A stretch of 61,267 nt of DNA from Asterionella formosa (GCA_002256025.1 NKIB01013256.1:1-61267); one strand, 5' to 3'. Counted from the stretch's first letter, positions 1,721 through 60,660 are shown. The notes: a model not told the origin generated them from the letters alone. Program-made: numbers and translations.

Positions 1721-2215
1721 GTATGAAAATACATTGTAGCATGATATTATGTTTCATTGTTACTTCAATGGCGATTTTATTTGATTGATTTTCGAATAGA
1801 AGAATGCAACTTAATTACTTCTTGGAGTAGCAAATTTACCATCATATTGCCTTGTATACCATGATCAGTGAAAAATACAGGTCCCAGTATAATGTCGCTA
1901 TTTTTGAAGAGGCAAACACACCTGTTGACTCTTATAGTATTTCATGGTCTCCAATGAATCCAAATAGACAGGCCTGATGCATCCAAAGGTTGTTTTTAAA
2001 CAAAAGCGTCGCCCTTGTAGAATCTGGAACATCCGTCGTCCGTCCGCCTCCCCCTATCATAATACCGGTATTTTGAAGCATTTCTCCCAAAGCTCTATAA
2101 AAAAAATCGCTACCGGGGTATACCAGTTAGTAACATCCGCATGTTCTCCTCCTCTTCCTCTTGTTCTTGCGTCTAACACTTCAGTTCACACAATTCAGTT
2201 GACTTATTATAAAAA

Positions 2216-2854
2216 ATGAATCAAGAACTCGCGTTATTGTTCGACGCTGAGGAAAGTGAATTCATTGATGGACGGTTTGTGTTCGACTCGCTGCCTTACG
2301 TTGACACCGTTCACGAGGACTACGAAGGCTATGCCCTCGCACTTATCGAAGAAGAGATGGAATCCATTCAACCTCCGAAAATCCGTAAGCTTGCTCCCAT
2401 TCAATATCGATCGGATTTAATGCGAACGGAAATGGACAATTTAGCGAAGACACCAGATCGGCCAAAATTGACTTTTGAACCCAAAGCTGCGGAGTCTCCA
2501 TCGATCGAGTCCGTGGAGGAATGGAGAAAGGTAGTGGCAGCTGAAAGGACAAAATTTGAAACTGAGAGACAACGTAGTATTATTTTGGAAATCGAAAATT
2601 CAGATGTATCGGCGCAGCAATGGAAGCACTATACAAGCATGGTTCTGGAGACGATTCAGGAGGTCACACTAGATCAACTGGGAAAACAAAGGCGTCGTGT
2701 GGACGAAATAAACGCGGAGCGACAGCAGCAACAGCAAAAAGTGGGGCACACCCTTTCAATTCTCACGAACCAATGGCATCAGCTTGTTCAAAAAAAGTTT
2801 AAGCTTGAGACTGCTATACGAGGTTTGGAGGCAGACGTCCATCCTAGCACCTAG
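2216..2854 (+). CDS. BCAS2: Pre-mRNA splicing factor SPF27 / BCAS2 family
   Basis: 212 aa. N-terminal DSLPYVD...ALIEEEM motif and a C-terminal coiled coil with INAERQQQQ and the LxxLxxxW pattern. Confidence 0.88.
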   Translation: MNQELALLFDAEESEFIDGRFVFDSLPYVDTVHEDYEGYALALIEEEMESIQPPKIRKLAPIQYRSDLMRTEMDNLAKTPDRPKLTFEPKAAESPSIESVEEWRKVVAAERTKFETERQRSIILEIENSDVSAQQWKHYTSMVLETIQEVTLDQLGKQRRRVDEINAERQQQQQKVGHTLSILTNQWHQLVQKKFKLETAIRGLEADVHPST

Positions 2855-3358
2855 GATGGCTAATTTAGCAAAATCTGAACTCGTCTATCAGCAGTGTTAT
2901 TTATGTCCGCTTTCCTATTGTATTTATTGGCATAGATTCAAAAAGGCACGATTCTTTTGTTTCCCGAATGGCTGCCTCTATAACATAGAAGCCACATTAG
3001 TTGCATGCCTGCTGACTTTTCATTTATCGATCCTCTTAACTTATCAAACTCATTTTTCCATCTGTGACTCATGAAGACTCTTACCAGGTACCGTGTGCAA
3101 GGTAATGCTATAGTAGCTATAGTCGTGTAAGGTGAGGAATCTTTTCAGTGACCCTTGCCGTAGTTAAAACAAGAATTTGCAGTTTTGTTTCAACAAGGCG
3201 GTGGAAGGTGCGAAAGGCAGAACCAACGCATAAGGAAAGACAGCACGCAGCTTCAAATTGGCTGAGCGAAGAAATGCCGGTATTATTTTAATCCATGTAT
3301 TGATCCAATTTTAAATTTCAAAGATTATATTTGCAAAACTTACTCTCGACATCACCAA

Positions 3359-3430
3359 GGGGGCGTAGCTCAGTGGCAGAGTGTCTGCTTTGCATGCAGA
3401 ATGCCGGGGGTTCGATTCCCTCCGCCTCCA
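3359..3430 (+). tRNA. tRNA-Ala(UGC)
   Basis: Cloverleaf: GGGGGCG/CGCCTCC acceptor stem with the G3:U70 Ala identity pair, GCTC/GAGT D-arm, TCTGC-TTTGCAT-GCAGA anticodon arm, GGGGG-TTCGATT-CCCTC T-arm and discriminator A. A T-run follows at about 3435-3443. Confidence 0.97.
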
Positions 3431-3470
3431 GCAGTTTCTTTTTGCATGTTTACCGGTAGATGCCACTCAA

Positions 3471-3572
3471 AACTCTGACTATTTTTTCTTTGGCATGAAT
3501 GATTGGACATCATTCATAACTCTTACAGCTATTTCTTTTGCATGAATGTTGGATATCATTCATAACTCTGAC
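3471..3572. repeat. About 47-bp tandem duplication, each unit containing a hairpin
   Basis: AACTCT units start at 3471, 3518 and 3564. Internal palindromes are ATGAATGAT-TGGAC-ATCATTCAT and ATGAATG-TTGGATAT-CATTCAT. Confidence 0.8.
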
Positions 3573-4838
3573 ATTTTTGTAACCTGCTTGCTTCCTACCG
3601 GTGTGTAAATCAGTGAAGTCTAAGGATTCCCCATAGACTACATAGAAAGTGTTCATAGTTCATAAATTAAAAATATATTTTGCACTACAGTACTTAAAGT
3701 TTCTGGTTCTGTAAACATAAAATTGCCATGGATGCTACCTGGTACTGTAAATGGATATAATCATCGCTTTTTATACTTATGTACTCGTTCTCCGAATTTC
3801 AGGGTGGTTACCAGTTACCTAACTCTCGACCTCTCATGTTCGACATGCAGATGCGAACCTTATAAACAACCCTAGCGATATTTTCTCCGAACTAGGGTTA
3901 AGGCGGGGCCGCAACCTTAAGGCTGTATTTGTAATGCCAGTCAGAATGGAAGTACATAGAGATACCAGAGCTATTTTGGTTACTAAGTATTCTGGATGCT
4001 CTCACGAGCTAGGGAAAGGCGTAGCTCAATGCAGATCATGAGTTACAAGTAAATTACATTCCTTAGACGAATCGAAATTTTGTGTGCACGACAGGTTTAA
4101 GCTGTGTGATATGTGGCACATTTGGGGAATAATGCTCTCTGTGCTTTGCTAGTGAAATCTCGGCAAACTCGTCATATCAAACACTCTTCTCACAGCGAAC
4201 TTGCTAGTTCGCCCACAATTTCGGTTCATGTAGATAAGTATAAAACAATATTTGACACATAACCTGGGATGGTGGACATTAACTATGTTCAGTTTGCCAG
4301 GCAATTCATTTTCTGGGCCATACATTTCTAATCTATCACCAAGACCACATTATGTTTTGTCGTCTCGCCTTCTCGTGATTTTCTCCCACAAGGGACGAAA
4401 TGTGAGATCGCCATCCATTGCTCCCCTCCTTTTCTAAACGTCAAAAATATATGAATTCAACGAGAGTATTCGGGGAGACGGTTCATTATTCACCACCTTT
4501 TACCCATGCGGCATCCTCGTATCTTGATATACTTGCGCCAAATTCATTCTAAGACTCTTGAAAGGGAAACCTGCAATCAAATACGAAACGGCGAGCATAA
4601 CTTTGTAAATGGCCCGCTGCCCGTGGAATATCTTAAGGGACCGGCAAGCCATCATCTTCATTCAATCAGGCCAAGAGTTTGATGGGACTCTCGCAAAGAA
4701 TACTTGTAGTACATTCATGTGATACATGTACAATCATACGAATAGAAAATGGATAAGCAAATCTTTGAAATTCACAAGTGACACCGAGAACTCAATATTG
4801 CGAGCCGCGCAGGTAAAAGTGCGTTAGACGTGGTGTAA

Positions 4839-7059
4839 CTAAAGTGTTGAAGTAGATCCAGAAAAACCATGTCCATGGATAAGGTTCAGGAACCAGGATG
4901 AAAGAATCTCAAACGAGACAGAGACTGACTCAACTACCTTGGAGGCATGAATGCTTGCTGATTTGGAGGCTTTATCTAGAGTCGCCCCCACTCCGCTGGA
5001 AAAAGAGTCGAAAAGAACCACAAATTTGGAACGGGTTACCAACATTTCTCCACTCGCATGGCACCACGCCGAGAAAATTGAAGACGAAAGGAATGCGAAT
5101 GCAATACTCGCAGAGTCACTGGCAGAGTTGAACAACGAAGCCAACCTTGTTGTACAAATCGTGAAACAAACCGAAGCCCTTCCTGTTACATTCGATATCA
5201 ACATCTCAGTATAAATCCAAGAAGGCATGACGACGGATGCCATTGCCGGAAGGAATCCACGAAGTGCCGAGCTGATGCCTGCGGCGACGTTCGATATGCT
5301 AATGAATAGCAATGATACCGTTCTTTCAGTTGATTGCGAAACCACTGTGCTCCATCTTGAAACAAGTGTTATCGTGAATTGGGACAGTCCCGATATCCAC
5401 GAGGCAAAATCAATCGTTCCGGTTACCACAACTGTAACAACAGTTGTTATAGTTACCCACATTCCCTTCGCCGCCTTTCCAATCACTGATTCCGAAATGG
5501 CAGCGAAAATGGTTCTCACAGCAGCCAAGGTCAAGGTGGAAACTGTCAGCGTCACCCTTCGGCTCAAGTCCAATGGTATTTTCAAGACTTTCAAAATAAC
5601 AGTGGATAAAGCAGTTATTAAGGATCCTCCAGCATGTGCAATACTTCTCAATACACTTCTGGCTGCATTTTGAATCAACAGGAAAGGAAACGAAAACCCT
5701 TCTTTGGCCGCAGAATGCATATTTCCACCAACTGTGGTCATGGCTCTATCGACTATTTCCATTTCTTTTTCGGACGCTCTAGAATTAACAAGTGCCATAA
5801 CCCCAATCATGATGAGTCCAACGCCCATTGCATATAGAACTGAATCAAATGGCGCATGTGAGAGCATGAGGGGAATTGGCGGCCAAATGTACAAGTAAAA
5901 TAGCGCTTTGAAACTTACATGCAGAGAGCCCTGGTTTAACAGCATATGTTACTGTATTTCGTATCGCTTCCCCTGTGGATCGCTGAATACCTTCGTCTCC
6001 CACCAGTTTTGTGGCGAATTCCATCGAATGGCTAAGAATCTCCTTGTCGTTCAATGCGTTGTGTGCACTTTCTGTCAAGAGATCCTGCGTTGCATCCAAC
6101 ACTCGCTGTTCACTCCCCAGACTTACCAAAAGTTTGGTCAGCTCCTCATATACTTTTTTGTCTTGGATAAGTGCAAGAACCAGTTTTTGCACGCTCGCTT
6201 GTATTTGTTCATTTTCAATTGCCTTTTGCAGTAACTTGATGATTCCGGCAAGCGTCTCAGGGTCAGCCACTAAATCTCCCCATAGCGCCATTACTAGTTT
6301 TTGAGCAGCGTCTTGAAATCGCTTCGACTCCAACACACGAGCCAGCAAGTCTGCCAACGTGTCTGCGACCTCTTGCGTACTCAATACATTCTTGATGAAT
6401 TTGGAAACCTTTTCTGTCAGGTTGGCTTGTCCCGACGCAAGAGCCCCATCTTCCAGATGCTCCTCCTTGACAATATCTCTCCAAACATGCGCCAAGTGTT
6501 CTTCTAACTCCTCCAACGCATCGTCGTCATAGGTAGACCTAGATACCTTCATAAACGGAAGGCCAAAGTAGGCAGCCGTACCCACGAGCACCGCTCCACC
6601 CACGGCTAACGGGATTGGTCCAATGTTCTGATAAAACGGATGGTCAGCGTTATCATTTTTCTTCTCTTTTATAGGACCTCGGTTGATATAGCTCATGTGC
6701 CGTTGTTGGTGTGATACCATCGTCGACAGAGTGGGGTGAAGATTCCAACAAAGATTCGTCACAGGCGCATAATTACAGCTCTTCCCAAACGACCTTATGC
6801 ACCTCGTATAGGAAGCCCCACTTGCGCTTACAGGTACTCGTAGATGCATTCGTTGGTTATTGTTCCTGTGGTGGTCAACAAATTGTCGTAATGCCAATGT
6901 ACTCGATGCTGGTCGAGAGTGTGACGACGATGAGCGCAGCAGCGATCGAACAAGTAATGGCGCAACTGAAATGTGCTCGTGGCATTTCATCGTATGCATA
7001 ATACCGGTACCACGTTGACCTGTTTTTCGAAAGGTCTGAATCAATGAAGATTGCAGCAT
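4839..7059 (-). CDS. Hypothetical membrane protein (about 713 aa, 2 exons), possibly mitochondrial
   Basis: A 79-nt GTAAGT...TTCAG intron at 5918-5840 joins ORFs 5845..7059 and 4839..5945 in frame. The protein has an Arg/Ser-rich N-terminus, a TM segment PIPLAVGGAVLVGTAAYFGL, a helical acidic domain, a second TM and an S/T/V-rich tail. The exact start codon is uncertain. Confidence 0.7.
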
Positions 7060-8189
7060 GATGGCGTGGTTGTTGTTAGCATATTACCTGGTACCGGTAG
7101 TAACTTGGTATGATGTATTAAAATAAATGTTTTCGTTTGTAAAAGGATGACAAAGGACTACAGCCTCATGATTGTTAGAGTTTATCCGTGTATGATATGT
7201 GAGCATACTACGATGCCTGGTAGGAGTAGTACCAGGTACCTGGTCTTGTACGCACAAGATCGATAGGATCCAACATGTTTGGACGATGTGGCTATTAAAT
7301 TCACAAAGGAATGTGATGATTTCTCTGCTTGCTTGATCATGGTCGTGTAACAAAGTCTGTGCATTTCTTGTTGCAATTATTGTTACCTTGCTTGTTGGTA
7401 CCAGGTCCCCGGTTGTCTACGTAGTCAATGGGTGGTGGCTTTCCTGTGCTAGATACCCAACAAGTGCTTGTAGTACCTTTAGCGTCTATTACTTTTCTAT
7501 GCTAGCCTTCCTGCTAGATAAACTAATTGACCTTCCCATCAATCAACACACTGTTTCCTCAATAGTTCATTCTAAAATTATAAGCTTAACTAAATCTTTC
7601 CTTTGTTTCCATGCATCTTTGCTTCCCAGCACAAAGTCATGCCAAGACTCTCTTCGAATTTTCACTTAATATTTCCATAAAAGTCATCAATCTTTGATCT
7701 TGGTATAGCCAGCTGATTGGCATGCATTGCATGATTCGACTCATTGGAGTACAATCGAGTTCACAATCTCATGAATCAAACTATTATTCTTGACATCCTC
7801 CCCAGCCATGCATGATTGCCAAGTTCAAGAAGCTCTAACATGCATTGTTCTGCCCAAAACTGGTTCAGACAATCTGGTATGAATCTGTTCCTTGACATTC
7901 TTGGTCATAATATCCACAAGGCTGTTTTACGACCTGATAAAAATGACCTTCAATTCTACATCCTCAATCATATCCTTCATGCCAGCATCATTTGGATGGA
8001 TGTGGACCCAGAAAAGCAAGGTGCATGGAATCCAGTGAACTATTTGATGTTACTAGTAAGAGAGGAGCAATGATAGCAGGAAGCATAATGAAGATTGCTT
8101 ACATTGCTCTCAAGGCAATATTCATATCAAAGATTTACTGAAGTTGAATTGGTATCATCCATGATGTTATCAACCACTGTGGCAGAGCA

Positions 8190-13800: not shown

Positions 13801-15591
13801 TTTCAGAATGGTTGCAGATTCGCTCAACAATGCAATTCACAGGAAGACCTCCTCGTGTTTTTAGCTGTCACAATGGCTTCTTGGTGTCTCAATAATGATT
13901 AGACAATTATTAGTCTACCTGGTCCTTCCGATTACTTTGATGTCTACCTTATTAGCTACCGGTATAGTTTTTGTATTAGAAAAGAATTCTACTGCCATCA
14001 TCGTCGCACAATACGTTTAATGTGGTACTTGGTAGGCAGGTACAAATCAGTTGTTGATGTGGGTGCGTTTCAAAGAAAAGGCAGGAAAACAATCTGCATG
14101 TGGCATCTAACGACTGAAATTGACTGGTTCACGAGGAACAAGTTAGTCGAATGAGTCATTGTCAAATTAGAACCCAGAGTACCACCTTTTGGTCTAGTTT
14201 GATTACACTTTTTCCATGGATTTTGTTAGCCAAGCCAGTGTAGCTGCCTTCGATGCAACAATATTCGATTTTCCACCTTGTTGTAGTTCCACCTTGTGGT
14301 AGTTTACCATTGTTATTTGCCTTTCAAGTTTCTAATTTCATAACTATATTATTTAAAATAAGTGATGCTAGAGTCGTCTTATCCGAAGAATTAGGTATCA
14401 CCTTGCACTTTTTGGATGGTTGAGGCTGTTTTCTTGCTGTAGGTTTCATCATTGTTAATGAGATAGATGACCGTGATTTGCTTCATTTTGTAATGTGATG
14501 GAAGCAATTTCTGAAATATTCCATTCATTTACTCAGAGTGACTAAATGATTCATTTATTGCTGCTATACCAGTAGTACATTGTCTGTGGGGGTTAAATGC
14601 GACTAAATTTATATTAGAAAAAAGCTTTCATCACAAATGTTTTCATCACAAATGTGTAGGTGAATTTCCGGGAGATGCCGGCTCATTGGTATAATATTTT
14701 TGTTTTTGCCACTTTTGGGCTGATCGCTAGTTTCCGACACATTTATCTGATTATCTAAAAAACACAAGACCTAAAATCGACAACAAGATATGTTGCATCC
14801 TGCGCGACGTCAGAAACAACTTTATTGTACTAAAAATAGTTAGTTTTTTCGTAACTTGGAAAATTTAGAAAAAATCTACTTGTACACAGGCAGTGTGAGG
14901 CTATAACTTTTCGTTGACACAAATACACAGCTTTTGGGCCATTAGTCATGCCATCTTTTGTCTCGCGCCAGGCAGTCTTGTGTACCATGTCGGCCATCTT
15001 AACACCAAATAGTTATATTGTATTTCAAAGACAAATACATTAGTATCGATAGAATGGAAACCAACAAATTATTTCCCCCCTTTTCGAAGACAAATATACA
15101 TTGTATATACATACTTTTCACCAGCAGTCTCCTTGTCAATGAATAATCATCTTCATTGACAAGGACAACATCGCCTGTTCAAATATCATTGTCTTGTCGC
15201 TTATATGAACAAAACAACTGATTTGAATTGTAAACAGGATGGCTGTTCAAAGGGAATGTCGTGCCGGCTGATCAATTCATGCTGTGCAACAGGTGCATCA
15301 GACACAACAGCCAGCACAAGTGCCAAACTCCCGATTTCCGACTTGCTCTGCTTCCCTGCGGCTTTTGTTGTTGTTGCAGCTCAGTTGGATGGCATGTCCT
15401 CCATGTCTTCTTCTATGTCAGACCAATCTTCATTGACGCTTACTGTACCAGCTGAGCCTACTGAAAATGATTTCATTGATAACTATGATTTGGATGGAAA
15501 TGATAATGACTATTCATTTTTGGAAAAAATTGTTCACTTCCTTGGTGAATACATCGCCCCTGAACATTGACTAGTATCCTGCAAAGCTGTT

Positions 15592-18362: not shown

Positions 18363-18439
18363 TTCTTGTGTGGCCACACCGTAAACATTGGAGGACACGC
18401 AGAACTGTGTGTCCTCCAATGTTTTTGGTGTGACAAGAA
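18363..18439. repeat. Long inverted repeat / hairpin upstream of the transposase
   Basis: AAACATTGGAGGACACGCAG-AA-CTGTGTGTCCTCCAATGTTT core, extended by CACACC/GGTGTG and TTCTTGT/ACAAGAA. Confidence 0.85.
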
Positions 18440-19975
18440 ATATGGTTGTTTGTGCTGTGTATTGTATTGGATAAGGTGACACACACAATGAAATTTGATG
18501 CACAGACACAAAAAGCACGTATGTGTCTGTGTTTGTGTTGCGCTAAGAAATAGCCTAAATGTTATATCTTTCTTTAGTGGCTCAAAGCCATTTTTAACTG
18601 GTTTATACTGGCATGGAGAAAACGCTGGCGAAGTTGGTTTGCTCATGCATAATGTTTGACGATCAAAAAAGGTCCAATGCATGTCATGTACTCCCCTTTA
18701 AGTAAAATCAATCGTGGCTGTGTACATTGAGGGGTACAAGAGACCAGTTTTTACGGTACCCCTGGTACCCTGATGCCGCGTACATTAAGTAAAGTGATAG
18801 AAATGCTAATGGGCAGTCGTTCAGTTGAATTTACTACTGCCGGCAATAGTTTTTACTTTTGCCTCACCCCGTTTTGAGAAAGTCGCCCAGTACATGACTG
18901 ATGGTACCAGGTACCGGTACAAAATGAAAATGGTAATAGATCCGAGATCGGAGTGTTATTTATCATGTACATTTAGAATTTTGCGCTGGTGGAAACTATC
19001 TTCGTTTGCCCTTCAATCTTCGGAATACAAAAGGATGGTCAGCAACATCTGGGGTCATCCTCAAAATCTTCGACCGGTGTAGACGATGCATATTACTTCT
19101 ACAGCGGGGTTCGCAAAGAGTGCGAGGGAAACCCGGCAATGTCGCTGACCATGATGCAACTGTTGTTGAAGTGCGGGAGTAGATATTTTTTTTGCATAAG
19201 CAGCAAGGAGCACCTGGTAAGCTACCTGGTCCCTGATAGTGGAGAACGGTACACTTCATTGAAGGTGACCGGGACTGGTACCAGGAGTGCCTTCTAGTAA
19301 GGTTTGAGATTCACCCTGACATTCTTCATGCATTTCCTTTTACTTGAAGACCGACTATTATATACTTCAAGTTGTAGCCATCATGACTCCACAGGAGCAT
19401 GATACCCTTTTACCGTTTTTTGAATTTTTATTACACTACGGGGCACCGGTACACCATCTAGTATTTATATCAATGAAACGTACATAGGGAGAATTAAATG
19501 AATTCTTTCCATGTGGATATGAACATACATACATAAGTAGAGGTACATGTTTGTGTGCGTCTACCAGTAGACTACCAGGTACCTGGTACCAGGTACCGTA
19601 CTTTCGTTGGTCGTTGAGTTGTCTCAACTCATCAGAAGTTGAAAGAAGGGTGCTGTACGACCGCTACATGTATTATTTCTGATCCTCCATTGCGTGCTTC
19701 TGTTGCTCGTGTAGATACTTCAGAGCTTTTTTTCTGTTGGTCAATACCTCAAAACAGTCCACTCCGCCCTGACTAAACACAATATCGATCAGCAGAGACT
19801 CAACTAAATCCCACCATTTTCTTAAAACTGTGAATTGATCACAAAAACTGTCATGAGACGGAATCAGATAACTGACAATAACCAAAATATTTGAAAAGAG
19901 AATCCATAGAACACCGCGAATCAGAGCCAATTCACTTATTCGTCTTTGTTTGCTGTATCAGGGTAAAATACCAAG

Positions 19976-23150: not shown

Positions 23151-24066
23151 TATGATAAATGGAACCCGAAAATCCTAAAACTGAAGGATGACAAGCAGGA
23201 TCATAGCAGCTGCTGGGAGGAGAGCAACAAAATGTCATCGTACTTATGTTGAATTGCAATTTTGTTGTTGTTGTTGTTGATTCTTGAACTCACTCAGCAA
23301 ATCTTGCTCACTGCCTGCAGACAATCAATCTGTGGTGGGCCAGTTTGGGAAGAATGAAATGTGGCTGGATCAGACTAGCTATTGGTGGTAACAACTGGTA
23401 GGAGTGGTACCTGGCACCTGGACTGCTACCTGATACCATTAGTCTATGCATACCAGGCATCAACTTGTTATCCTATACATATTAGCTACACTGGCAATCA
23501 AGATTTTGTACCAATAGTAAAGTAGTAGTAACAAATTGTGACTTCTGTGATGGAGATGATTGGCAGAGGCAGAGGCAGATGTGTAGGCTTTTCACATCAC
23601 CAGAGGGAAAACTGTCAAGACATCCAACTCATACTAGCTACAAGCCAATATGTGTGTTTTAAATCACTCCTAACAAGAACTCAGTAATAGTTACATAGCT
23701 GCAGGTAAGGAGTACCCTTACTATTTATGCATAACTAATATGAGAAAACATGATCATAAGGAATAAAATGCAAAAACTAGAGGTGCTCTACAAATCTACC
23801 AGGTACCAGTAGCTGGTACGTTGAACTGAATAGAGTACCTGGTACCTATCGACTATTTTCTAATATTAGCTACAACATAAATATGATGATACATTTTAGT
23901 AATATGATACGAGATTTTTATACAGAACGGTAGTATGCCGGTGGTATGCTTGAGTACCCGTAGGTATTTCACAACCATCATCATAAGGGAGCTTGATATG
24001 ATAGGCAAAATGTATCTCGTCAGCACCAAATATCGGAATTGCAATTCATTGGCAGTGTCTCTCACC

Positions 24067-28363: not shown

Positions 28364-30119
28364 GGTGAACAGAACAAAAAAAAGCGGGCGATGATCCTGC
28401 TGATGTTACAGGTTGGTGACTATATTATACAAATACTGGTACCGGTATAGATGTGTAGAGAAATCATTGACAGTACCTGGTAGTCTAGTCTACCGGTTCA
28501 TGTACCGGTACTCAAACAAAAAGGATTGCACCATCAAGTGCACACTGTTTGTACGGTGCACGGCTACTTATTTCGGGCTGTCCTCTTACCACGACACGAA
28601 AGAAACAACAGACATCAAAATATTGGTGGAGAGGAGAAATACTGACGTCTGGCCGCCGAAATGATGGGGATGATTCCTCCTATCTATAAAACATCTACTA
28701 TACTTGAGTACGGTAATATACAGAGGAAAAGATATTTCGTCCCCCTAACCCTAAACCTTATCTCCAGATGCTACCATGGATTTTTTGGAAGAATATACAA
28801 TTGGTACCAGATGTCAAAGGGAGTGACATTGTTCACATCAGTCAAAATGGGAGATGTACTAGCTGGCAGATCTAAAAGAGAAGTAACAAAAGGAGCATGG
28901 CGGAAGGAGCAACAAAAAGCAAACAAAGCATGGCTGTTGAAAATACCCTGATGATAATGATCATCTCCAAGCAAAACTCATTTTCGATGTGCTCAGATTG
29001 AGGAAAGTGATTACACAGAACCAGCTTGGTACAGGGTTATAGGTTGTCCAAGCACAATGCATTTGAATTATGTATAGTGCATAGTATGCACTTGTAGTAC
29101 TTACAAAAGGTTTTCTTATATACATACGTAGTTCGACCCATTCGTATGTAGGTGTATGTATGCATAAATGAAATCATTTTTCTTTAAGAGCAAGAAATGG
29201 CTGATCAGACTACCAGTATGTACGACTTCTAGGCAAAAGGCAGACAATCTTAATTATTACATCGGCTGTGACGAATGAAAGAACACAAAAATCCATCCTG
29301 TGAAATCAAATCTATACTTTTGTATAAATACATAAAGATGGCATCCGTTCCAAAATCCCCGATTTAATTACCCGTTCACGGACAATTGTACCAAGATCAA
29401 AAAAAGGAAGCTTAATTGCCGTCGCAGCTCTCGTCCGCTGAAAACGCGTAAAAAGAAAACAAGCGCAAGAGGTTCCCCCATGTGGTCATAATTATGGGAA
29501 GAAAGAAACAAATAATGGTGTGGTTGAAGGTCACTGCCAGCATGGACGACAAGCGCATCAGTCTATCAGAAGTTGATTCCCAAATCCCACTGGTGTATAA
29601 TTTGCCAAAGCTTCCAGCAGTCCGTCGATTCGATGTAACAAGGTTTGAATCATCATCAAACAACACACCAGTGCAGCAATCGTAATCCGTTAGAAATCGC
29701 AGAGCATCGTGTCATCCTGTTCCGAAGGTAGACAATCGAGGCATGCCGCCCGGGATGTGGATGCAATGAGAATTACCAACGAATTCTTCACCGTGAAGGA
29801 CAGGAGAAAAAACGGTCAAGTTGCAATGTCTGATTAGGAGTGCAACATCGCTTGAACAAGTGAATATTTAGAAGACTGGGGGATCTGCGAATCTTTTTCG
29901 TGAAAGCTACATTCTGTTACATAAGCAAGAAATTGACTTTTGTGTCAGAAAAGTATACATTTTGCAATCTAGAAGGTGTTGTTGTATCATTTCCTGCTGA
30001 GTGGGGTACAAAAGTCTCAGTGCCACGACCACATAACATAAAGCTAGGATAACTAGCGCCAAATCTTCATCTTTAGTCGATTGCACATCTATGGGCTAAT
30101 ATCGCAGGGCTCAACTATA

Positions 30120-31142: not shown

Positions 31143-31780
31143 GATAGACTTTCCAGATGGTGGTGCTTCGTCACAGAAGGCAAGGAGGTTAATGTGATTG
31201 TATCCTTGTCAATTGATAAGATGAGGAAATCATGATCTACATAGGATAGAGACACCCTGATGGTGCAACAGGCGGACTGCCGCCTTCGTATGTCATGTAT
31301 GTACGAATTCTCATGATGATACCAGAGGTACCAGGTACCATCAGCCAGAAATAATCGGAAGTGACTACAGAACACATTCGAAAACGAATGCCGGTTTGCA
31401 CCGGTATATATCTTCTCGATATGCTTACCGGTATGTATGTAAAGCGTATGCATTACTTCGAATTTGTTCATCATTGTTACCGGTAAGTACCGGCATGCTG
31501 AATTCGCGCGTAAAATTACAAAATGATAACTTCATCAAGTCGACCATATGCTCCGTCACATCAGTCAGCATTTAAGTATCTTTCTGACCTCTACGAGCTT
31601 ACAGACTTTAAACCGCTAATGCCCAACATAGCTTTTTGTAATAAACAATCATCAATTCATAAAAATAAATTTAAAATATTCGTTATTTCAACATTAATTA
31701 ATTGTTTGTTTGTACATGTACCCGTAATTTTCTATCCCAGATATTTTCCTCTATGGGTACATGATGGCTGGCTTGATCGC

Positions 31781-38104: not shown

Positions 38105-39379
38105 GGTCCCAATAACAAACGGTACGGCTTGTCGTTGTCGTCGCTATTACAATGAAAAGAAAAACAATGTCAGTGAACAATGCGAGGAGGTGGGGTTTTG
38201 TTTCGAAGATACCGGTACCATCAGGTACCTGATGGACAGATGCTGTCATGGACTTCGATATCGGATAGGTCTACCGGGTACACATTTCTGAATACCGGTA
38301 CATCATATTATATTATTATACGAATATAAATGGGTTGCATTTCGGTACTGCAAGTTGCGGTCATCATGCATATTGCTGTAACGGACAAAATAACACTTGG
38401 GCACAGGCGCTTGTTATCATGTTCATCATACATACAAAGAGAACGTTATCAATTCATTTTGAAACCATCTGTATCACAAATTCTAGAGACATTGGTTTTA
38501 TGCTGATATTATTCTTCCAAATGCGAAAACGTCAAAACGTGGGCATAATGATGGCTTAAATCGGGACGTGACAATCAATGCTGACCAGCACGCAATAATT
38601 TCTTTGTGATTATTTATGTGCCTAATGAGAAAGTGAAGAAATGAAAATAAAAAATTTCTTACTACATAAAATAACCATTTGCCTATACATACCGGGACAA
38701 AATTTCCATCTGTCACGAGGACTGCTCCATGTGTAATATAGATGTAGAAGAATCTACCAGTATATATGAGCGAATCTGACAAAGTCCCACACTACCGGTA
38801 CCGGTATATCGCTCATCAGCATTCTTACTTCATGATGGCGAGTGCCTGAGCGACACGAAAGAACTGCTATATGCTGAGGATAATTGATACGGTATCGACG
38901 TTACGAGGACATCAATACGAAAACCAATAGCTGGAGGGATACAAAGGGATTTAGGATGATGCTTGTTCGACCACAGCAGCTCCTCTGAATTCTTAAAAGG
39001 AATCGTCGGGATCAATTGTCAATGTCCTTTTGCGGAGAAATCGATTATCCCATTTCTTTTACGAAAGCCTTTTTATAATTCGGTATATTATTTTCCCAAA
39101 ATGGCCTTGATCGAATGCTATTCTGTTTACCAATTTCTCTGCACAAGCGCCGAACCTTCCTAATTGTTCTTCCTGTGAAGCTCAATATCACTTTCGGTGT
39201 ATCCTTGGTCGTGTGAACCCCATTCTACAACAAAGTCTTGCGCTGAAGTTCATCACCACCTACACAATAGCACCTTCCTAAAGCCCCCAGAAAACGTCGC
39301 AACTGATGTCGTCATGAATAAATGAGAAGGCGAATCAAATTCTCAACTCATATCTTTTCCGTAAACTGTTATCTAAGCC

Positions 39380-40195: not shown

Positions 40196-41052
40196 AGTAA
40201 ATACAAATAGGGGGTACAGATTTTCATGGAGGAGGCCTGAAACTCCCATTCTTGTTTAGCAAAGGTTTTGTATTGCTATAATAGTGTAGTACTTGTCAAC
40301 CTTTGTTCATTATTCAGCCGAGCTCCTTTTTCGTTTGCACTGTTAGTAGAAGTCTCAGGTATAGCTATTATATATATACGTGATCCAATATTATGTGCTG
40401 CCAACTACCGGTACGAATTTTGTGACCGGGAGTTGTACAATGAACACGATGGACTATTGATTATTGTGAGGTCATGGCGCGAGTACCCGAAAAACTTGAT
40501 TAGTATTCATGACAAGCCCTAAGAAAAAAATTCCTCAACATTCTATATGGCAGTAGATATGGGTAAGTTTTCCCGGTTCGCAACGTTTCAATGATTCGAA
40601 ATCGGGACACTGAGTATATACCGGTATTATATAGAATGATACACGCATATATACATATGGATGAGGTAGGTCTCCCAGTTCCCTTGCCCGCCCTTTGAAA
40701 GGAGTTGTACAATGAGCAGTACCTCCTTTCTAATGAAATGGCAAGTGGACGATTGTAGCGTTTTTGACTGAAGTGGATACATCGTGCAAAAGGCTCATAT
40801 CGCTCACGAGACGATTTTCCAGTATCATGTAATTTGCGATCCTTCCCTTCTTTGCTATTTCCACCGTTCCCTTCATACTTCCGTCCCTAAGAAAATCCAC
40901 TTAGTGTAACCCATAGCTCTTGATCAAAATATCGTGTGCGTCTTTTTGCATTTGTGTAATCAGCCAAAAACTGGGTGCCCTTATGCGCAGAGTTATTATA
41001 CAACGCAAATGATGAATTTTGTGGATCGACTGTGCTGTCAGATTGACAAAAA

Positions 41053-50719: not shown

Positions 50720-51019
50720 GTTTGATCGCTTCGATCGTTGTCCTCAATTTCTTTCGTTGTTCATCATGGTTGTTGTTTAAATCTCTGCTCTTTTTGGCGC
50801 GCTGGAAATAACGGTAGCTTGATGATTGAGACATGTCTTTATATCCATTCCTTAATATGTTCATACGCTCTCCGGGTACCATATTTTCATGTATTCTACA
50901 CATAAATTCTTCACAACCAACAAATATTGAATCTGTTGCTCCAATTAACTGTTACTTTTTACTCTCTCTATCCAATTATAAAGGATACTAGTAAGTTTCA
51001 TAGCCAATTTGCACTCCCT

Positions 51020-51373: not shown

Positions 51374-51439
51374 TTGTCTTGAAGCGCTTAAAATAAGTGA
51401 GGGTAAATTCTTTTACAATTAAACCATCCAGATAACATC

Positions 51440-53550: not shown

Positions 53551-53803
53551 TTATAAATGTGTTAAAGTGTTACCTTTAGCTAGTAGATGATATATTTATT
53601 GTTGGGCAAAGAAAGCTCAAGAGTGTAGATGTTCATTTCCCTTCCACTGCTATATTCTTCACATATATTACACATCAGTTAGGGATATACTGGTACCTGG
53701 CTTATAGCTAAGCAAAGTATAACAATCGAAAACAACCACCGGTACTAAATATTAGAAGTATTATTTTTCCATTGCTCAAGGTTTCACCCTACATACATGA
53801 AGC

Positions 53804-54204: not shown

Positions 54205-54752
54205 CGACGGTATGATTTTGAGGGAACTTTTGATTTCTTGTGTGTGGGCGCACTGATTGATGGTCAGAGAAATGGGCACATCGATTCTCGCATCATCAAT
54301 GGGAGATGTTCAAAGGAAATGTCTCGCCACAACCATTCAGCATTTGTTGCACTGGAATAGGATGAACTAAAATTGGGGAATTTTTGGATAATCAAAGTGG
54401 AGGCATTGACTCTATGGTATCTTCTCACATTCAACGTGCGATTATTGCTGCTGCAGCATTTTTTCGTGGGTTCAGAACTGATAGATATACAACCAAAGCA
54501 CTTTATGTATAATTTTCTATGGTGATAAAACGTTTAAGACACTTTCCATTTAGCTAGTAAATGCCTGAGACGGTTCGTGTGTAAATCCTAAATCGCAGTT
54601 CTTCCGTGATTTTGAGCCTGAGAGGTGAAAATCCCGGCTTTCTTCGATACACTTCTTGGACCGTTGCTGTGATCTCAATGAACATCATCAATCTGGTGCC
54701 AGTTTCCCGATTTTGATGATAAATGTGTTGACATCAAATTAAAGGATTCTTG

Positions 54753-56087
54753 TCATAGTTGGTCGAACTCAGGAGGGGATATTTCCTCACTTGCAGGGAT
54801 GGTTACAGTCTTCCCGCTAAAGTGCGGGATCCAAAAATATGCAGCTATCAGGATAATGAATTGTACGACGAAGGGAAGAAAGGAGATCAATTTCTGTGCC
54901 TTTCTATCCAGCTCGTTTTCGCTCTCATTTGTTGGATGAACTGCGTTCGTGATTTCGTTCGCATCGCACTTTTCCAAAGTAGCTTTTGAATCTGGTGGCA
55001 CCTCATTTGGCTTTTCGACTTTCATGGCTTGACTCATCCTTACCATCATTTCTTTAGACTTTGCTTTGTAATCTCGTTTTCTCAACTGTAGTTCTACTCG
55101 TAGCTTCCTTACATCTGCATCATCCGCATCCACTTCCTCGGCTGCAACAATGGCTGCACTAGACTCCTCAAAGCTACAACTTGGATCCAGCATGGCAGCT
55201 TTCGCAGCTCGCAAAAGTGCCTTGAGATTGTTTGGATCACGCATCAAAGCAAGTGTTGCCGATTCTTTCGCTTTGCCATACTCTTTTGCACGCATGTACA
55301 CAGCTGCTGTGTTGTTCAGGGCATCAATAAGAATCTCTTTCGCATCCTCTTGTAACGCGGCATCCGTGTCGTCACCGAGACTATTCGTCGCAGCTTCTCC
55401 GGCCTTTTTGTAGAGGAGTAGGGCCTTATTCTTGCCATACCCGTTAGACCATTCATTGGCATACACGTCATTGCCAATCGACTTCTTGTTCTTTGCAAGC
55501 TGCAGTTGAAATTTAGGTGATGCAATCGTGTTGTCGTCGGATATTACAGATTTAACGTGGATATGATAGACGACATTGGAATTCGGAGGCAATTCGTAGG
55601 AGCCGTGTTTCCGTTGCATGGGACCATATGCAAACTTTGAATGGCTGTACACAACGGACCGTTCTCCTTCCTTCATGAATCGAATACCCATTTCCAGTGC
55701 AGGGGTAACGTCCTTGTCACCCACCATGATCATCCAATCGTTGGCCTCGTGAAAAACCTCACCGCTTTCTTCACTGCGGTCCGATGCGCAACGTCCAACA
55801 AAATCCACAACTACAGCATCATGCGCTTCTACATCTTTTGATTTATTGCTCGACGAATCGTCTTTATTGATAATCTGCAGTAGTGGTGGGGTTGAATAAA
55901 AAAGCACTCGTTAGTGACTTGACGAATTGATCCACTCAGAAAAGGAAAGTTAACATGGCCCTGATTAAAAAGTTCGTACTTTCATTTGAAGATCATCGCC
56001 CATGAGATTCATCCAAGTGCCAAATCTCCCTCCTGTCTTCGGAGCTTGCTCCTCGTCCAATTCATCAATTTCTGAAATGACTACCAT
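54753..56087 (-). CDS. FKBP-type PPIase with TPR repeats and C-terminal membrane anchor (FKBP8/FKBP42-like), 2 exons
   Basis: Exon 1 spans 56087-55980 with an intron at 55979-55875. Motifs ALEMGIRFMKEGE...KFAYG...LPPNS.V.Y, TPRs (KKSIGN..Y, NNTAAVY, DPNNLKALLR) and a hydrophobic tail. Confidence 0.88.
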
Positions 56088-57455
56088 TGTTTCTTAATAG
56101 CTTTGGACCTTACAATCAAAAATGAAAAGATTATTGTGGAGTAGAGTATGTACCGAGAGTGTAGGACTTGTGCCTATTCCACTGCTTTATGCAACTTCGC
56201 TGGTGCTTGCTCTTGAATGCGTTTTTGTTGCAGTTGCTTGTTGTCGCCCTGAAGGTTGTTGTTGTGGCGGGCGAGTATGTATACCTTGTATTTGGTTACT
56301 TCTTATGATTTTTGTGCGTGATCGGATGAAGCATCAATGAATGATATGATTGATGACAATCACTTTTTTGTTCAAAAGAAGAAGCAAGAGCGAATGTACC
56401 GTAAGGAGTGGCACTGGTAAGGTACCTGGTACTGGTACCAGGTACCGTACCCTGGTACCTGGTACTATTCGGTGCCAGGTACCTGGTACACATACATCAT
56501 GCATAGTATGTGTCGAAACACAGATACATAGATGATACATCGCTGAAGCCACCATCATCAGCTCAAAATACAGTTGAATTATTCTAACAGTCAAAGTAAA
56601 CGTATTTAGTAGTCGTACGAATACAGGATATGTGAAACCACTATATTGTTGTACGTTCGGCTGCTCGTTCGAGCGAGCGATGGCTGACCCTTCATTTGTA
56701 GCCGGGCTCGTCGCTCGTTTAGCTTCTTTTCTGTTCCGAGATTCTAGGATGTACAAATGTACTGACGCCATGAATCTAGGATTTCTCTACCATACAGTAC
56801 CGGTAAGGAAGGCTAGGATGTTCGCGTGCCATACGGGTCGGAAATACTGGTACCAGGTCCAAGCGTTAGATTACCAGTTTTTAACTGCTGGTCATCAAGC
56901 AGGTAACGATTTAGCACTCCTCAGGGTTCCTTTCATGTACTTGTTTACCTGAACTCCAGCACTCCCGGCGTACTCCGATACAGGTACCTGGTACCAGTTT
57001 TTTTTCTCCCAGAGGGACCAGGTACCATACATACCAGCAACCACCAAAGAATGCTCAAGAGAAATGCATTTCACACTGGTGTGGACTGGCGCGTTGCTTC
57101 ATTTCTACACCACGAACACATCCGAAGGAGAAAGAACAAAATACAGTTCCTTTTCCAAGGTATCCCTGGCACCAGATACCCTTGGTACCAGGTACTGCAA
57201 CGACTTACCGGTACTCGTAACTGTTACCAGAGGATACGTACTGTGGTAACGAGACCACCAATGATTGTATAATGAGAACGTATTAGCTATATCTGTAGAT
57301 GACAACGAAGCGAATTCTTTCGTAGGTCACAGCCTCGAAATCACAGCCACAATTTCCAAAACATTTCTGAGTCGTCATAAATTTCTTCCATCACTCCCGA
57401 CTCATAAAAACGAGCCGACAATTCTTAAATCAAAGTTTCGAAAATTCAAGTCAAC

Positions 57456-57965
57456 ATGAACACAAAGACTATTCTCCTCGCTATTATGTATGCTCCAAAT
57501 GCGTTCGGTTATGTATCAACAAATACCCCTTTGGGAATTACGACGAAACCTTTTTTCGGAATAGAAAAAACCAATTCCGCCAGGACTGTTCCCAAACCTC
57601 GGCATGGTGGTATGGTCTACGACCTGGGCCTAGGAAAGAATCTTCCCGTGAGCGGAAGGGCTGCCACTGAAATAACTGATTTAGAGACAGCGACTCAATT
57701 TTTGGTAGAATACGAGGGAGTCAACCCCTTCCCCTCGCCAAGGTCAAGTGATACAGAAAACCCCGTCCTTCCGACCAAGCGAATACTACCAATCATAAAG
57801 CCAACACGCAAATCAGAAGATGTATTGAGCATTTTTACGCAAAATGATTCGGATTCTGTGCCTGCTACTATCTTTCAGGCAAAAGCAAATCTTAAGATGG
57901 ACCTGAACACGGTATGGGTCGAAATGATGATTCATAACCAACAGATGCAGCTTGCTAAAAATTAA
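57456..57965 (+). CDS. Small hypothetical protein with a signal peptide and NA-F plastid-type cleavage motif
   Basis: 169 aa starting MNTKTILLAIMYAPNAFG, with conserved-looking islands YDLGLGKN.PV and MDLNTVWVEMMIH. Confidence 0.65.
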   Translation: MNTKTILLAIMYAPNAFGYVSTNTPLGITTKPFFGIEKTNSARTVPKPRHGGMVYDLGLGKNLPVSGRAATEITDLETATQFLVEYEGVNPFPSPRSSDTENPVLPTKRILPIIKPTRKSEDVLSIFTQNDSDSVPATIFQAKANLKMDLNTVWVEMMIHNQQMQLAKN

Positions 57966-58096
57966 CAAGTTAATCAAGTCCAACAAAATATCATTTCATG
58001 TACTTGAGAGCTGTCAATGTCATTGTAAATTTTACTAGAAAATAGCATGAACTTTGTGATCAGAGTAACAACAATTTCACACCATATCACGAGCCA

Positions 58097-59618
58097 TTAC
58101 GCTGTCGACATTTCCAACTTTTCTGGTGACACAACCATCAACTGCTCTGCTCCAGACATGGGCGGCTTTGAGTCACCCTTTTTTGTTGCTGAATGGTAGT
58201 TCATACTGGCCCCAAACCAAGCATTCGGGTGGTTACCGACATTGTCGAGATCTAAATCTTTGATGGACGTTGCCTTTGGGTGCATCACTTCAAAGTGACG
58301 CAAACATGCGAGTTGGTAATTGTGGGTTTGCTTCAACCGCAGAATTTCGCCACGTTCCTGAGGAGTTCCAATGCTCATTTTGGACAACAACGAGCTTAAA
58401 TGATCGTCATCATAGTTCTTGTACGGGCACCCATGATGATCTCCAGCTCCAGGAGCCTGTCCCATGATAATCTTTTTGCAATTATATGGCGTATAAGTGG
58501 CTCGCTTCCCCTCCTTTCCGTACATGTGACGTACCCCATAAGCGTATTGTTTGTTGTAGTCTTCTGCTGTCATGAGCTTTCCAAATTCGCGCTGAAAGAA
58601 TAAGAGTGAATCCTCCATGGTCATTCCCGCTCCCTTTAAAAATAGACCATATTGCAAACGACCCCAATGTTTGAGCTTGTGATCGCGTTTCAGACCTGCG
58701 TGGAGTTGCGACATGCATAGCGGCATGCTGGATGCCAAAGAGTCCACTGTGGCTGCTGTGACATTCGTGTCTCCAATGGCAAGCGTATCCACGGCCCGAG
58801 ATGTCATTTGTGAGTTAATCGTTTTCAATAGAGGAGCAATGCGGCCTTCCTCCTCGACGGTCGAAAAGGCAGCCGCTGCCAACACCAACGAGCGAGACAG
58901 GGACATGCGGAATTTGGCTGCGAGAATAGAAACCACTTTTGGAAGTGGAACGTAGGCTTGGCCCTTGCTGATGAAACAAGCACGTTGAGCAACAAGCTCA
59001 ATGGCCTGAACAAAGGGTATCTTATAGTAGGGCGTTGCAGAATAGTCTCCAAGAGTCGTGCCCGGGAGGGACAGGAGCTGTTCGCGAAGAGCATCCTTTT
59101 CGTTCGTCGAAACCTTGGTCAACTCCACCTGTTTCAAGATAATTCCCAAGGAAGCTTCCGGCAGCAAATCAACGCGATGCTTGAAAAGGATACTTTCTTG
59201 AGCGAGAAACCAACGTCGAAGGTCCTCTGTGCGGCAATACGCAGCTCGGAGAATGAAATGAGAGGCAACATCGAGCTTTGGGTCGTGCAAATTGGCTTTG
59301 ATGGTCGATTCCAACTGAGTTCGAAACGAATCTCCAGTCACGTTGCGTACTTTGAGTTCCTCTATCTTGCGGAGGACCTGTTGGGCAAAAAGGGAAATTC
59401 TTAGCGTCTGTGTTGTCACTCCTTCTGTAATAATAAGAGTTCGCGCAATTTTGAAATACCTTGAGTCGAGCCAAAGCAAACTCCTCGAATTCGTCCAAGC
59501 TGAGTTCGAAGTTGGGAATCTCATCGTAAAAACAGACGGTTGGAGAATTGGACTTGCTGGATCCGTCCAACGATGGTCTCCCAAATCGCGACGAAGGCTT
59601 GCTACCTACTACGTTCAT
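58097..59618 (-). CDS. PRIM2: DNA primase large subunit, 2 exons
   Basis: An intron at 59459-59378 joins FY...P..ELSLDEFEEFALARLK to VLR. Also D.ASHFILR.AYC, Fe-S domain PLCM, HKLKHWGRLQYGLFLKG, YTPYNC, HGCPY and HPNAWF. Confidence 0.95.
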
Positions 59619-60179
59619 GATGGATATCTACAAACAAGAACTAATGATAAACGTCGATGGGATTGCTCGTTTTTGGATCAAGGAGTACTTAATCAAGCCC
59701 GTGTTACGGACACAGTAAAGGAGGAAAGATGGATGGGTTGTCGACAAGTTGTTTGGGGGGAAATTGCGATCAATGGGGGACCGATAATGATTGACGATTG
59801 TACCAGAATAACTACCGGTACCTGGTACCGGTAATATAAATCAACAATGCAACTACGCGGTACCTGGTACCAGGTACTATACATTCATATGCATACAGAT
59901 CTATTTGTAAACGAATGAAGAATTTGTATGCTATTTATTTCAAGTATAGACTGAGAACGACGTAACCGGAGTACTTGTACTCCTTATTTTATCGAAATAC
60001 CGGTATTTGTGGCATATTAGTTACCGGTATGACTGATACCAGTATAACATCCACACAGGTGTATTAAAACGATTTATGGCGCGCCACAACCAAATTGTTT
60101 CTCCGACAGCTACCGGTATCGTAAGTTCGACAAGGAAACTGTGGTTACTACCGGTATGTATGGATACTCTGACAGCCGT

Positions 60180-60660
60180 ACTACCAGGTAGCACGACCTA
60201 GATCGTACATACCAGGGTACCTGGTACCTGGTACCATTATCAGCTAGGTGTTTACAGGAGTTAAAACAGGAACTGAACTCATCTACCAGCACCTGCAAGT
60301 TGCGGTAATTTTGCTGAAACTAAAGCTTTAGCTTTCTTTATCCCAGATTAAAATGTTAGTTTAAGCAAAATGAACGCAAAGAATTTAGACTACCGGTACC
60401 AGGTACCTGGTACTGATACCGGTGGTCTAGAGTCTAGACGTATGTATTCCTGGTACCAGGTACCAGGTACCGGTAGTCTAGAGGTATGTATTCCATAGTA
60501 CCAGGTACCGCCAGGTACCAGGTACCTGGTACCTGGTACTACTAGGTACCACCGGTGAGTACATGGGCATCAGGTACTTGGTGCTAGCTGGTATGGTTCC
60601 TGGTACCTGGTACCATCATTGCGGATTGCGGTACCAGGTACCTGGTACATGGTACCACTT
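60180..60660. repeat. Dense palindromic (GGTACCW)n / TACCGGTA array
   Basis: For example CCAGGTACCAGGTACCTGGTACCTGGTAC at about 60511-60539, with a 7-bp period. Includes a local duplication of GTCTAGA(C/G)GTATGTATTCC. Confidence 0.9.

Follow-up and report, generated by a model that had tools for sequence, protein, structure and literature searches.

A palindromic word that chains into period-7 micro-arrays upstream of genes in at least two diatoms

The stretch of 61,267 nucleotides deposited for Asterionella formosa as NKIB01013256.1:1-61267 (GCA_002256025.1), here called the window and analysed over its whole length, is nuclear DNA of a freshwater diatom in which the palindromic words TACCGGTA and TACCWGGTA (W for A or T), singly or chained into short arrays around a common GGTACC, lie upstream of most genes. 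The database relatives of its PRIM2 open reading frame (ORF) have identities of 99, 86 and 79%, the best named matches of this ORF are diatoms (Attheya septentrionalis, 58%; Cyclotella cryptica, 53%), and public runs containing window sequence carry the labels freshwater, lake-water or algae metagenome. A first-pass annotation, made by a model from the sequence, had named many of the genes, and most of these calls were borne out by Pfam on long ORFs: BCAS2, a two-exon Na/Ca exchanger, Obg, an S49 peptidase, a DDX10-like helicase, ADH, two O-fucosyltransferases (O-FucT 1 and 2), petC, HDAC, FKBP and PRIM2. Pfam gave no support for its labels "Pcc1" (53749-54009) and "methyltransferase" (47510-48682). 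From ORFs, Pfam and RNA contigs 19 genes were curated, two of which are small unverified ORFs and one of which, the exchanger, has an uncertain start.

GGTACC occurs 62 times in the window where 6.21 occurrences are expected from 100 dinucleotide-preserving shuffles (the largest shuffle had 13), the corresponding numbers are 35 and 0.22 for TACCWGGTA and 28 and 0.24 for TACCGGTA, and none of the 100 shuffles reached any of the three counts. The eight top-scoring 7-mers and the ten top-scoring 8-mers of the window are all pieces of this family. The observation made by the first-pass annotation is real, the counts lying far above the shuffled controls.

The basic word is a palindrome with the half-sites TACC and GGTA and a spacer of 0 or 1: the pattern TACC-Nn-GGTA is found 28, 36, 4, 3, 3, 0 and 1 times in the window for n = 0 to 6, spacers 0 and 1 dominating. 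With n = 1 (TACCNGGTA) 35 of the 36 window sites have A or T at the centre (A 17, T 18), and so do 306 of 313 sites of the metagenome loci described below, in which A and T are again about equally frequent; together this makes 341 of 349 sites. Because central A and T are equally frequent, TACCWGGTA is without orientation. It mostly sits within GGTACCWGGTACC, with G/C at 73-89% in the flanking positions; TACCGGTA often stands alone and has A/T-rich flanks. Neighbouring sites overlap via a common GGTACC to give (GGTACCW)n chains and, more rarely, (GGTACC)n, and the most frequent spacing between successive GGTACC is 7 (17 times in the window, 86 times in the loci). After merging of matches there are 57 motif blocks in the window, and Tandem Repeats Finder (TRF) detects arrays with a period of 7 and between 2 and about 7 copies at nine or more places, namely at 19573, 31326, 56421, 59859, 60216, 60452, 60511, 60594 and 60630. 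Many sites are single-copy rather than head-to-tail repeats; isolated perfect 8-mers at promoters number about 15 in the block list and 12 under a stricter filter. The palindrome thus has a sequence specificity beyond base composition, seen in its W centre, its preference for spacer 0 or 1 and its TA..TA context.

When the upstream zone is taken as the DNA within 600 bp of a gene's 5' boundary, gene models being ORF/Pfam proxies, it contains 36 of the 57 blocks in 11.3 kb (3.19 per kb). The DNA 601-1200 bp upstream has 8 blocks in 7.3 kb (1.1 per kb), the 3'-only flanks 4 in 4.8 kb (0.83 per kb), other intergenic DNA 3 in 8.5 kb (0.35 per kb) and the 29.3 kb inside genes only 6 (0.20 per kb), which agrees with the earlier impression, gained by eye, that the motifs are rare in exons. 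A block within 600 bp upstream was found for 14 of the 19 genes versus 3 of 14 3'-only flanks (Fisher p 0.005), and when nearby blocks were merged, 15 of 22 non-genic clusters were centred in the upstream zone, versus 7.8 expected (p 0.002) from the 35% of the non-genic DNA of the window that this zone makes up. The block nearest to the ATG or 5' boundary typically lies at 30-220 bp. With crude ORF-only proxies the window alone gives sites in 1 of 5 convergent gaps versus 9 of 13 others, which is not significant (p 0.12). One intragenic GGTACC (39824-39829) falls exactly at the likely 3' splice site of petC (ttacag followed by GGTACC), at the start of the Rieske-domain exon.

Table 1. GGTACC-type motif blocks along the window. 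Distances are those to the first ATG, gene start or RNA contig end named; (+) and (-) give the strand of the gene.
Gene or region	Position	Motifs	Distance or remark
BCAS2, upstream	2063..2070	isolated TACCGGTA; partial TACCGG at 2111	~150 bp before ATG
BCAS2, downstream, convergent gap	3082; 3451; 3736..3744	TACCAGGTACC (3082); TACCGGTA (3451); TACCTGGTA (3736)	exception to promoter rule
Membrane (DUF445-like) gene (-), 5' end	7002..7402	four blocks	33-340 bp upstream of first ATG
Obg (-), upstream	13957..13964	isolated TACCGGTA; partial TACCTGG at 13916	160 bp
Gap between ORF 18332-18697 (-) and 543-aa gene (+)	18755..19597	four blocks, including (GGTACCW)3.6 at 19573-19597	
S49 peptidase gene (+), upstream	23406..23846	three blocks	94-527 bp
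DDX10-like helicase gene (-), upstream	28438..28808	four blocks	37-400 bp
ADH gene (-), upstream	31327..31485	three blocks	191-339 bp
O-FucT 1 (-), upstream	38210..38300	two blocks	115-192 bp
Divergent O-FucT 1 / petC region	38793..38806	(TACCGG)2TA, period 6	581 bp upstream of petC
petC (+) / O-FucT 2 (-), 3'-3' gap	40406..40626	two isolated TACCGGTA	exception to promoter rule
Position 47410	47410	partial word only (aCCGGTAt)	
HDAC (-), upstream	50875..50880	single GGTACC	158 bp
87-aa ORF ("Pcc1" of the first-pass annotation, without Pfam confirmation), upstream	53692..53697	GGTACCTGG, GGTACC(TGG); then partial CCGGTAC	55 bp
FKBP gene (-)	56421..56488	dense period-7 array, ~6.7 copies	96 bp beyond polyA RNA contig end
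Divergent FKBP / 178-aa gene region	56798..57213	five blocks	nearest ends 206 bp before 178-aa RNA contig
PRIM2 (-)	59813..60656	largest cluster: 15 blocks, 47 motif matches	from 73 bp beyond polyA RNA contig end

Nearly all of the example sites listed by the first-pass annotation are among these blocks (Table 1), those at 47410, 50875 and 53692 being weak. Its exception at 40405-40630, between convergent genes, is real (sites at 40406 and 40619); the other, at 18750-19290, which it had taken to be without a gene, proved to be the 5'-5' region between ORF 18332-18697 (-), which adjoins a Harbinger relic, and the 543-aa gene (+). The three sites downstream of BCAS2 were absent from its list; those at 3082 and 3451 are within 600 bp of the BCAS2 stop. 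The block at 7002 falls just inside the ORF of the membrane gene. The PRIM2 cluster is interspersed with unique and short repeated DNA and terminates against a 207-bp element at 60665-60871 that resembles a miniature inverted-repeat transposable element (MITE) and has perfect 18-nt terminal inverted repeats (ACTGTAAGCCACCGCTAT); the bin with this element has a depth of about 200 times single copy in two DNA runs.

Contigs of polyA RNA from the same sample (X11), of a metatranscriptome (X8) and of DNA from other studies (X2, X6) were aligned to 41268-61267. The polyA contig of PRIM2 ends at 59740 and has an 82-base intron (59376-59457), that of FKBP ends at 56325 and has an intron at 55875-55979, and that of the 178-aa gene begins at 57419. 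The nearest blocks start or stop beyond these ends, at the distances given in Table 1, and the arrays are therefore outside the three transcripts as assembled, where it must be kept in mind that RNA contigs cannot prove the true transcript start. A contig of the X8 metatranscriptome (59458-60318) extends into the PRIM2 arrays; it may be DNA in that library. DNA contigs of the X2 study cross the 56421-56854 arrays with 0 gaps and likewise span 56953-60318 (56983-60235 in records 13 and 14), which shows that the arrays are not an artefact of one assembly, and contigs of JGI and ENA metagenomes carry the same arrays. Small indels within the 56421 array (56444/56446) are seen in single X8 and X2 contigs.

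Many contigs, up to 37 at one place, leave the aligned stretch at array borders, and their flanks do not match one another (agreement with the consensus 0.39-0.56); the arrays, together with the MITE-like element and some short repeats next to them, are therefore dispersed over many unrelated loci. At 59944-61267 the contigs of each of the two DNA runs add up to a depth of about 200 times single copy. Self-BLAST of the window gave 8 high-scoring segment pairs, none with shared array flanks; the sole pair that touches arrays is a local tandem duplication (60431-60524). Joints between arrays in the contigs, such as those from 56447 to 60455 and from 60471 to 60651, were rejected as deletions, their sides being only 18-26 letters long and in repeats. 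The possibilities that the motifs are fragments of a single transposable element or an assembly artefact, both raised by the first-pass annotation, are thus contradicted by the unrelated flanks and by the presence of the arrays in independent contigs. The arrays explain assembly breaks at promoters in these genomes.

All counts given here rest on the window and on metagenome loci found with the pattern GGTACCWGGTACCWGGTACC. This pattern matched at least 124 stretches in metagenome contigs, of which 123 loci were analysed, 80 of them with wide flanks. In an all-against-all comparison of the 123 loci only duplicates shared sequence and no common flanks were seen. In mid-G+C loci the array is mostly outside ORFs. 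In some 30 loci with a G+C content of at least 0.58 (e.g. L003, L026, L030, L037, L072) it is mostly within a long ORF; these arrays are presumably bacterial coding repeats unrelated to those of the diatoms. For the statistics loci of at least 4 kb and with a G+C content of at most 0.52 were taken, the duplicates L016 and L044 were dropped, 127 of 161 long ORFs were Pfam-scanned, and the ORFs of L004, L019, L021, L035, L055, L060, L066 and L067 were excluded. Eukaryotic genes are present in the 23 loci retained (six DUF6824 ORFs; DUF285, ShK and PAP-fibrillin domains). The best named matches of the phosphomannomutase in L065 are all diatoms ("Asterio..." in MMETSP, 55%; Cyclotella cryptica, 53%; Cylindrotheca and Nitzschia, 52%), and from composition, contig series and gene content we infer that the remaining loci come from the same or similar diatoms. 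The array loci thus include a second, unrelated-looking diatom. None of the loci overlaps the window, and the search for orthologues found none of a window gene and no orthologous pair among the loci; all that turned up was an Obg of bacterial type (L066) and DUF6824 proteins that are paralogues. In L067 a far longer array (9990-10100) has 7 and 6 units around one variant unit; this 15-kb contig contains hardly any long ORF (11% cover) and may come from a different, gene-poor eukaryote.

In the 23 loci the density of matches was 0.30 per kb in ORFs (147 kb) and 0.31 per kb in convergent gaps (9.6 kb; a match in 1 of 20 gaps), versus 5.44 per kb in divergent gaps (19.3 kb; 10 of 20) and 4.82 per kb in tandem gaps (44.4 kb; 17 of 38). 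Within the tandem gaps the matches are skewed towards the start of the downstream gene, only 4 of 214 being in the fifth nearest to the 3' end of the upstream gene. When L055, which lacks Pfam support, is added, 1 of 21 convergent and 28 of 60 5'-containing gaps have matches (p 4e-4); when loci and window are pooled the numbers are 2 of 26 and 37 of 73 (p 1e-4), and among gaps matched for length (200-1000 bp) a match is present in 1 of 19 and 14 of 36, respectively (p 0.01). The loci had been selected for the presence of an array, not for its position relative to genes, and errors in ORF orientation would weaken the contrast between convergent and 5'-containing gaps rather than produce it. The strong enrichment upstream of genes over convergent or 3' DNA and over coding sequence, claimed from the window, holds for its curated genes and for the independent diatom contigs. 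A dispersed, promoter-proximal palindromic word of 8 or 9 bp that chains into period-7 micro-arrays is thus solidly established in at least two diatom genomes.

The second diatom has its own dialect. TACCWGGTA is found 313 times as the n = 1 pattern (centre W in 306) versus 15 TACCGGTA, whereas the window has 28 TACCGGTA, and its upstream gaps are rich in words of the class RGTACY (R for A or G, Y for C or T; GGTACC 147, AGTACT 145, GGTACT 102, AGTACC 97). Short loci such as L042 and L015 resemble the window in having many isolated TACCGGTA. The epithet "lineage-specific" given to the element by the first-pass annotation therefore has to be restricted: it holds only in the sense of at least two diatom dialects that carry the element.

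How fast the arrays change can be seen from two homologous contigs from two samples, L049 and L063, whose flanks differ by few substitutions and two short indels. One array of 26 bp is wholly present in one and absent from the other, a second differs by about 25 bp and a third in its central letters; the turnover of the arrays, by gain, loss and change of size, is therefore much faster than that of the surrounding sequence. The present/absent array is flanked on both sides by TGC, which lies within a (TGC)n-like tract. With head-to-tail period-7 copies whose number varies between near-identical contigs the arrays are short tandem repeats by the usual description, and the expansion that had been suggested for them, together with the comparison of array copy number between alleles and strains proposed as a check, found its counterpart in the TRF arrays and in these 25-26-bp indels within near-identical flanks. 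A second 7-bp repeat, (GAGCATC/G)n, at columns 236-270 of the L049/L063 alignment A1, also varies in copy number between the two contigs, and period-7 repeats may be generally unstable in this genome.

The arrays of TACCGGTA and TACC(A/T)GGTA look, from their sequence and position, like a general promoter element in at least two diatoms. A palindrome of 8 or 9 bp with 4-bp half-sites and a strict A/T centre would be a plausible recognition site of an abundant dimeric DNA-binding protein, and such a putative factor could, at most promoters, have a general role in regulation or in opening the chromatin. The arrays would then be homotypic clusters of overlapping binding sites that grow and shrink by replication slippage, and the number of sites, and with it the occupancy by the factor, would drift and be tunable gene by gene. 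We consider it possible, and indeed nearly probable, that this is what they are: clustered, overlapping sites of a dimeric general promoter factor, resized by slippage. Protein recognition is favoured because the word is strict, its centre is A/T and many perfect sites are isolated. Several points weigh against it. With a register of 7 bp, overlapping sites are so close that dimers could not sit on all of them simultaneously, and the functional step is purely one of reasoning from the sequence. Five of the 19 genes (the Na/Ca exchanger with its uncertain start, the 15.2-kb unknown, the 498-aa gene, O-FucT 2 and the 390-aa gene) are without a full upstream site, O-FucT 2 and the 390-aa gene having half-words only, and a few sites are in 3' DNA (downstream of BCAS2; in the petC/O-FucT 2 gap). 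The upstream gaps of the second diatom are flooded with CTACTA, TACTAC and TACTAG besides RGTACY (CTACTA 503 versus 40 expected), which is more in keeping with a regime of composition or mutation than with a single site; CTACTA/TACTAG and RGTACY words are not enriched in its convergent gaps or ORFs, and CTACTA, TACTAC, TACTAG, AGTACT and GGTACT are not enriched in the window. Finally, the hypervariability between L049 and L063 is also expected of a neutral microsatellite.

The last point leads to an explanation without function, which we regard as unlikely, albeit by no means negligible: a hypermutable palindromic microsatellite whose location at promoters is a by-product of where mutation acts and is tolerated. 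GGTACC-type seeds would arise and expand by slippage, hairpin formation or template switching, preferentially in open, nucleosome-free promoter DNA, and be purged from coding and 3' DNA. A functional promoter element and a by-product of expansion in open chromatin are both viable. The tandem structure of period 7, the whole-array and copy-number indels between L049 and L063, the small indels in the 56421 array, the species dialects (28 TACCGGTA in the window; 15 versus 313 TACCWGGTA in the second diatom), the TAC/GTA low-complexity words that abound in the upstream gaps of the latter and an array size that varies widely between genes, without evident tie to gene type, all fit a microsatellite. 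What fits it poorly is that many promoter sites are isolated perfect palindromes of 8-9 bp, which slippage alone does not explain, that the centre is strictly W with nearly all of the excess in the complete TACC..GGTA word, and that convergent intergenic DNA, which does not code for protein either and is probably tolerant, holds as few sites per kb as ORFs do. Identical adjacent W units are in weak excess (19 versus 12), so simple unit slippage is not dominant. The arrays might also act through DNA structure without a dedicated protein, cruciforms or slipped hairpins extruded under negative supercoiling, or the exclusion of nucleosomes, keeping promoters open. The long arrays speak for this, as they fold as single strands far better than shuffles (56415-56492 at -26 kcal/mol, z -5.9; 60495-60555 at -19 kcal/mol, z -3.75; 59805-59880 at -15.4 kcal/mol, z -4.3); most blocks, however, are short, three-unit arrays folding at about -7 kcal/mol (z about -2 to -2.6) and (TACCGG)2TA at -2.9 (z -0.8), and isolated 8-mers are unable to extrude. 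Neighbouring W pairs, moreover, are alike (AA/TT) about as often as complementary (AT/TA), 19 versus 12 in the loci and 2 versus 2 in the window, and therefore the arrays do not seem to have been shaped as perfect long palindromes, for which complementary W combinations would be preferred. The structural explanation is thus improbable, and the earlier cruciform idea is weakened.

Mobile DNA would be a further source of dispersed repeats, the arrays being either fragments of MITEs or other transposable elements or the accumulated target-site duplications or excision footprints of a transposon that inserts into promoters at a palindromic target. Harbinger-type relics are present in the window, the MITE-like element abuts the largest cluster, depth is about 200 times single copy at 59944-61267, and one array is wholly present or absent between L049 and L063 with TGC on both sides. 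The TGC flanks, however, belong to a (TGC)n-like tract, the high depth is partly due to the MITE-like element and other short repeats, no terminal inverted repeats or target-site duplications were seen around arrays, flanking sequence was not shared by the arrays of the window, nor by those of the 123 loci, the loose-end flanks of contigs aligned to the window agree to only 0.39-0.56, and GGTACCWGGTACCWGGTACC had 0 matches in 2.9 million viral contigs, all of which makes this origin quite improbable. Very improbable indeed is that a cytosine methyltransferase with sequence specificity, Dcm-like for CCWGG or else for CCGG, has the words as its targets and sets an epigenetic mark or boundary at promoters. 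Every unit does contain CCWGG or CCGG, as the first-pass annotation had pointed out in proposing methylation, and the centre is strictly W; yet the upstream excess of CCWGG is mostly in TA..TA context (165 of 266 in the loci), CCSGG (S for C or G) is not enriched, nor is CCGG in upstream gaps (45 versus 40.6 expected in the window, 97 versus 127.6 in the loci), so that the unit is the whole palindrome rather than a Dcm-like core and the general idea of methylation targets is weakened. A bolder idea, which we judge distinctly doubtful, is that a self-propagating palindromic micro-repeat has colonised nucleosome-free promoters and that two or more diatom lineages have co-opted it, along with a dimeric factor specific to the lineage, as their main general element for opening promoters. 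Such a repeat would spread by whole-array insertion or templated repair besides slippage; if it did, a fast-evolving repeat number would set promoter strength across most of the genome, each lineage having its own dialect (TACCGGTA versus TACCWGGTA/RGTACY).

For the putative dimeric promoter factor the closest parallels are the ubiquitous palindromic words of housekeeping promoters, such as the Drosophila DRE (TATCGATA), which is bound by DREF, the apicomplexan TGCATGCA and the human TCTCGCGAGA. Like the diatom words they are perfect palindromes of 8-10 bp, free of orientation, specific to one lineage and found just upstream of a large part of its otherwise unrelated genes; they differ from them in the word itself and in occurring mostly in single or few copies rather than in overlapping period-7 arrays. 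Microsatellite-like promoter repeats are known in the GAGA elements, to which GAF or BPC proteins belong, and the tandem repeats of yeast promoters were reportedly the subject of work by Vinces and colleagues in 2009. Both share with the diatom arrays the concentration in promoters and the fast change in copy number, which is considered to tune occupancy, nucleosome depletion and expression, but their units are non-palindromic and 2 bp long or AT-rich, whereas the diatom unit is a strict self-complementary word of 7 bp. The site of the yeast general regulatory factor Reb1 (TTACCCG) is short as well, lies upstream of many genes irrespective of their function, where it borders the transcribed region, and has the letters TACC(C/G)G in common with the diatom word; unlike the latter it is asymmetric and single-copy. 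Heat-shock elements, contiguous inverted nGAAn units, resemble the arrays in their alternately inverted short units of variable number, and diatoms have a very large family of heat-shock factors; their half-site, however, is 5 bp versus 3.5 bp in the diatom arrays, and they are limited to stress genes, whereas the arrays are at most genes. SBP-box factors (SPL in plants; CRR1 of Chlamydomonas with its copper response elements) bind sites with a GTAC core, CGTAC being favoured, and the RGTACY class enriched upstream in the second diatom has this core. An SBP-box element was nevertheless rejected, CGTACN being the rarest form in upstream gaps (CGTACC 24 and CGTACT 24 versus GGTACC 147 and AGTACT 145).

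In a full-text literature search, judged by titles and the openings of abstracts, these words were nowhere found described as an element of promoters or as a repeat, be it in diatoms or in other organisms, the matches being primers, cloning sites and unrelated papers only. The running text of a protein-binding microarray survey of oomycete factors (PMC11267843) is without these words; its logos or supplements could hold a matching specificity. Lineage-specific ubiquitous promoter palindromes and promoter tandem repeats are known from elsewhere, and for GGTACC arrays in diatoms we found no published description.

One short word that marks most promoters would offer a direct way to the factor binding it. 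It would also aid in locating transcription units in metagenome assemblies of diatoms and in designing synthetic promoters, and it would allow tests of whether changes in repeat number drive the evolution of expression in natural populations. Diatoms contribute a large share of aquatic primary production, and to our knowledge almost nothing is known about their general promoter architecture.

Some features of the window are of interest apart from the arrays. Relics of PIF/Harbinger-type transposases (DDE_Tnp_4, Plant_tran), split over several ORFs, are found at 16781-18272, 44921-45629 and 22662-22877; beside one of them a 128-bp unit is present as a tandem duplicate with 94% identity (16628-16883), and a 94-bp tandem duplication lies at 1457-1643 within ORF 1310-1753. 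The depth of the DNA runs is high and repeat-like at 44603-47270 and 50606-51939. The ORFs 15160-15570 and 15571-16272 are in the same frame with one stop codon between them and have no Pfam match; the pair could be a pseudogene, contain an intron with an in-frame stop, or be read through. About 250 bp upstream of O-FucT 2, a gene without a GGTACC-type site, there is an (AT)14.5 tract at 43152-43180, around which reads are cut (43140-43185).

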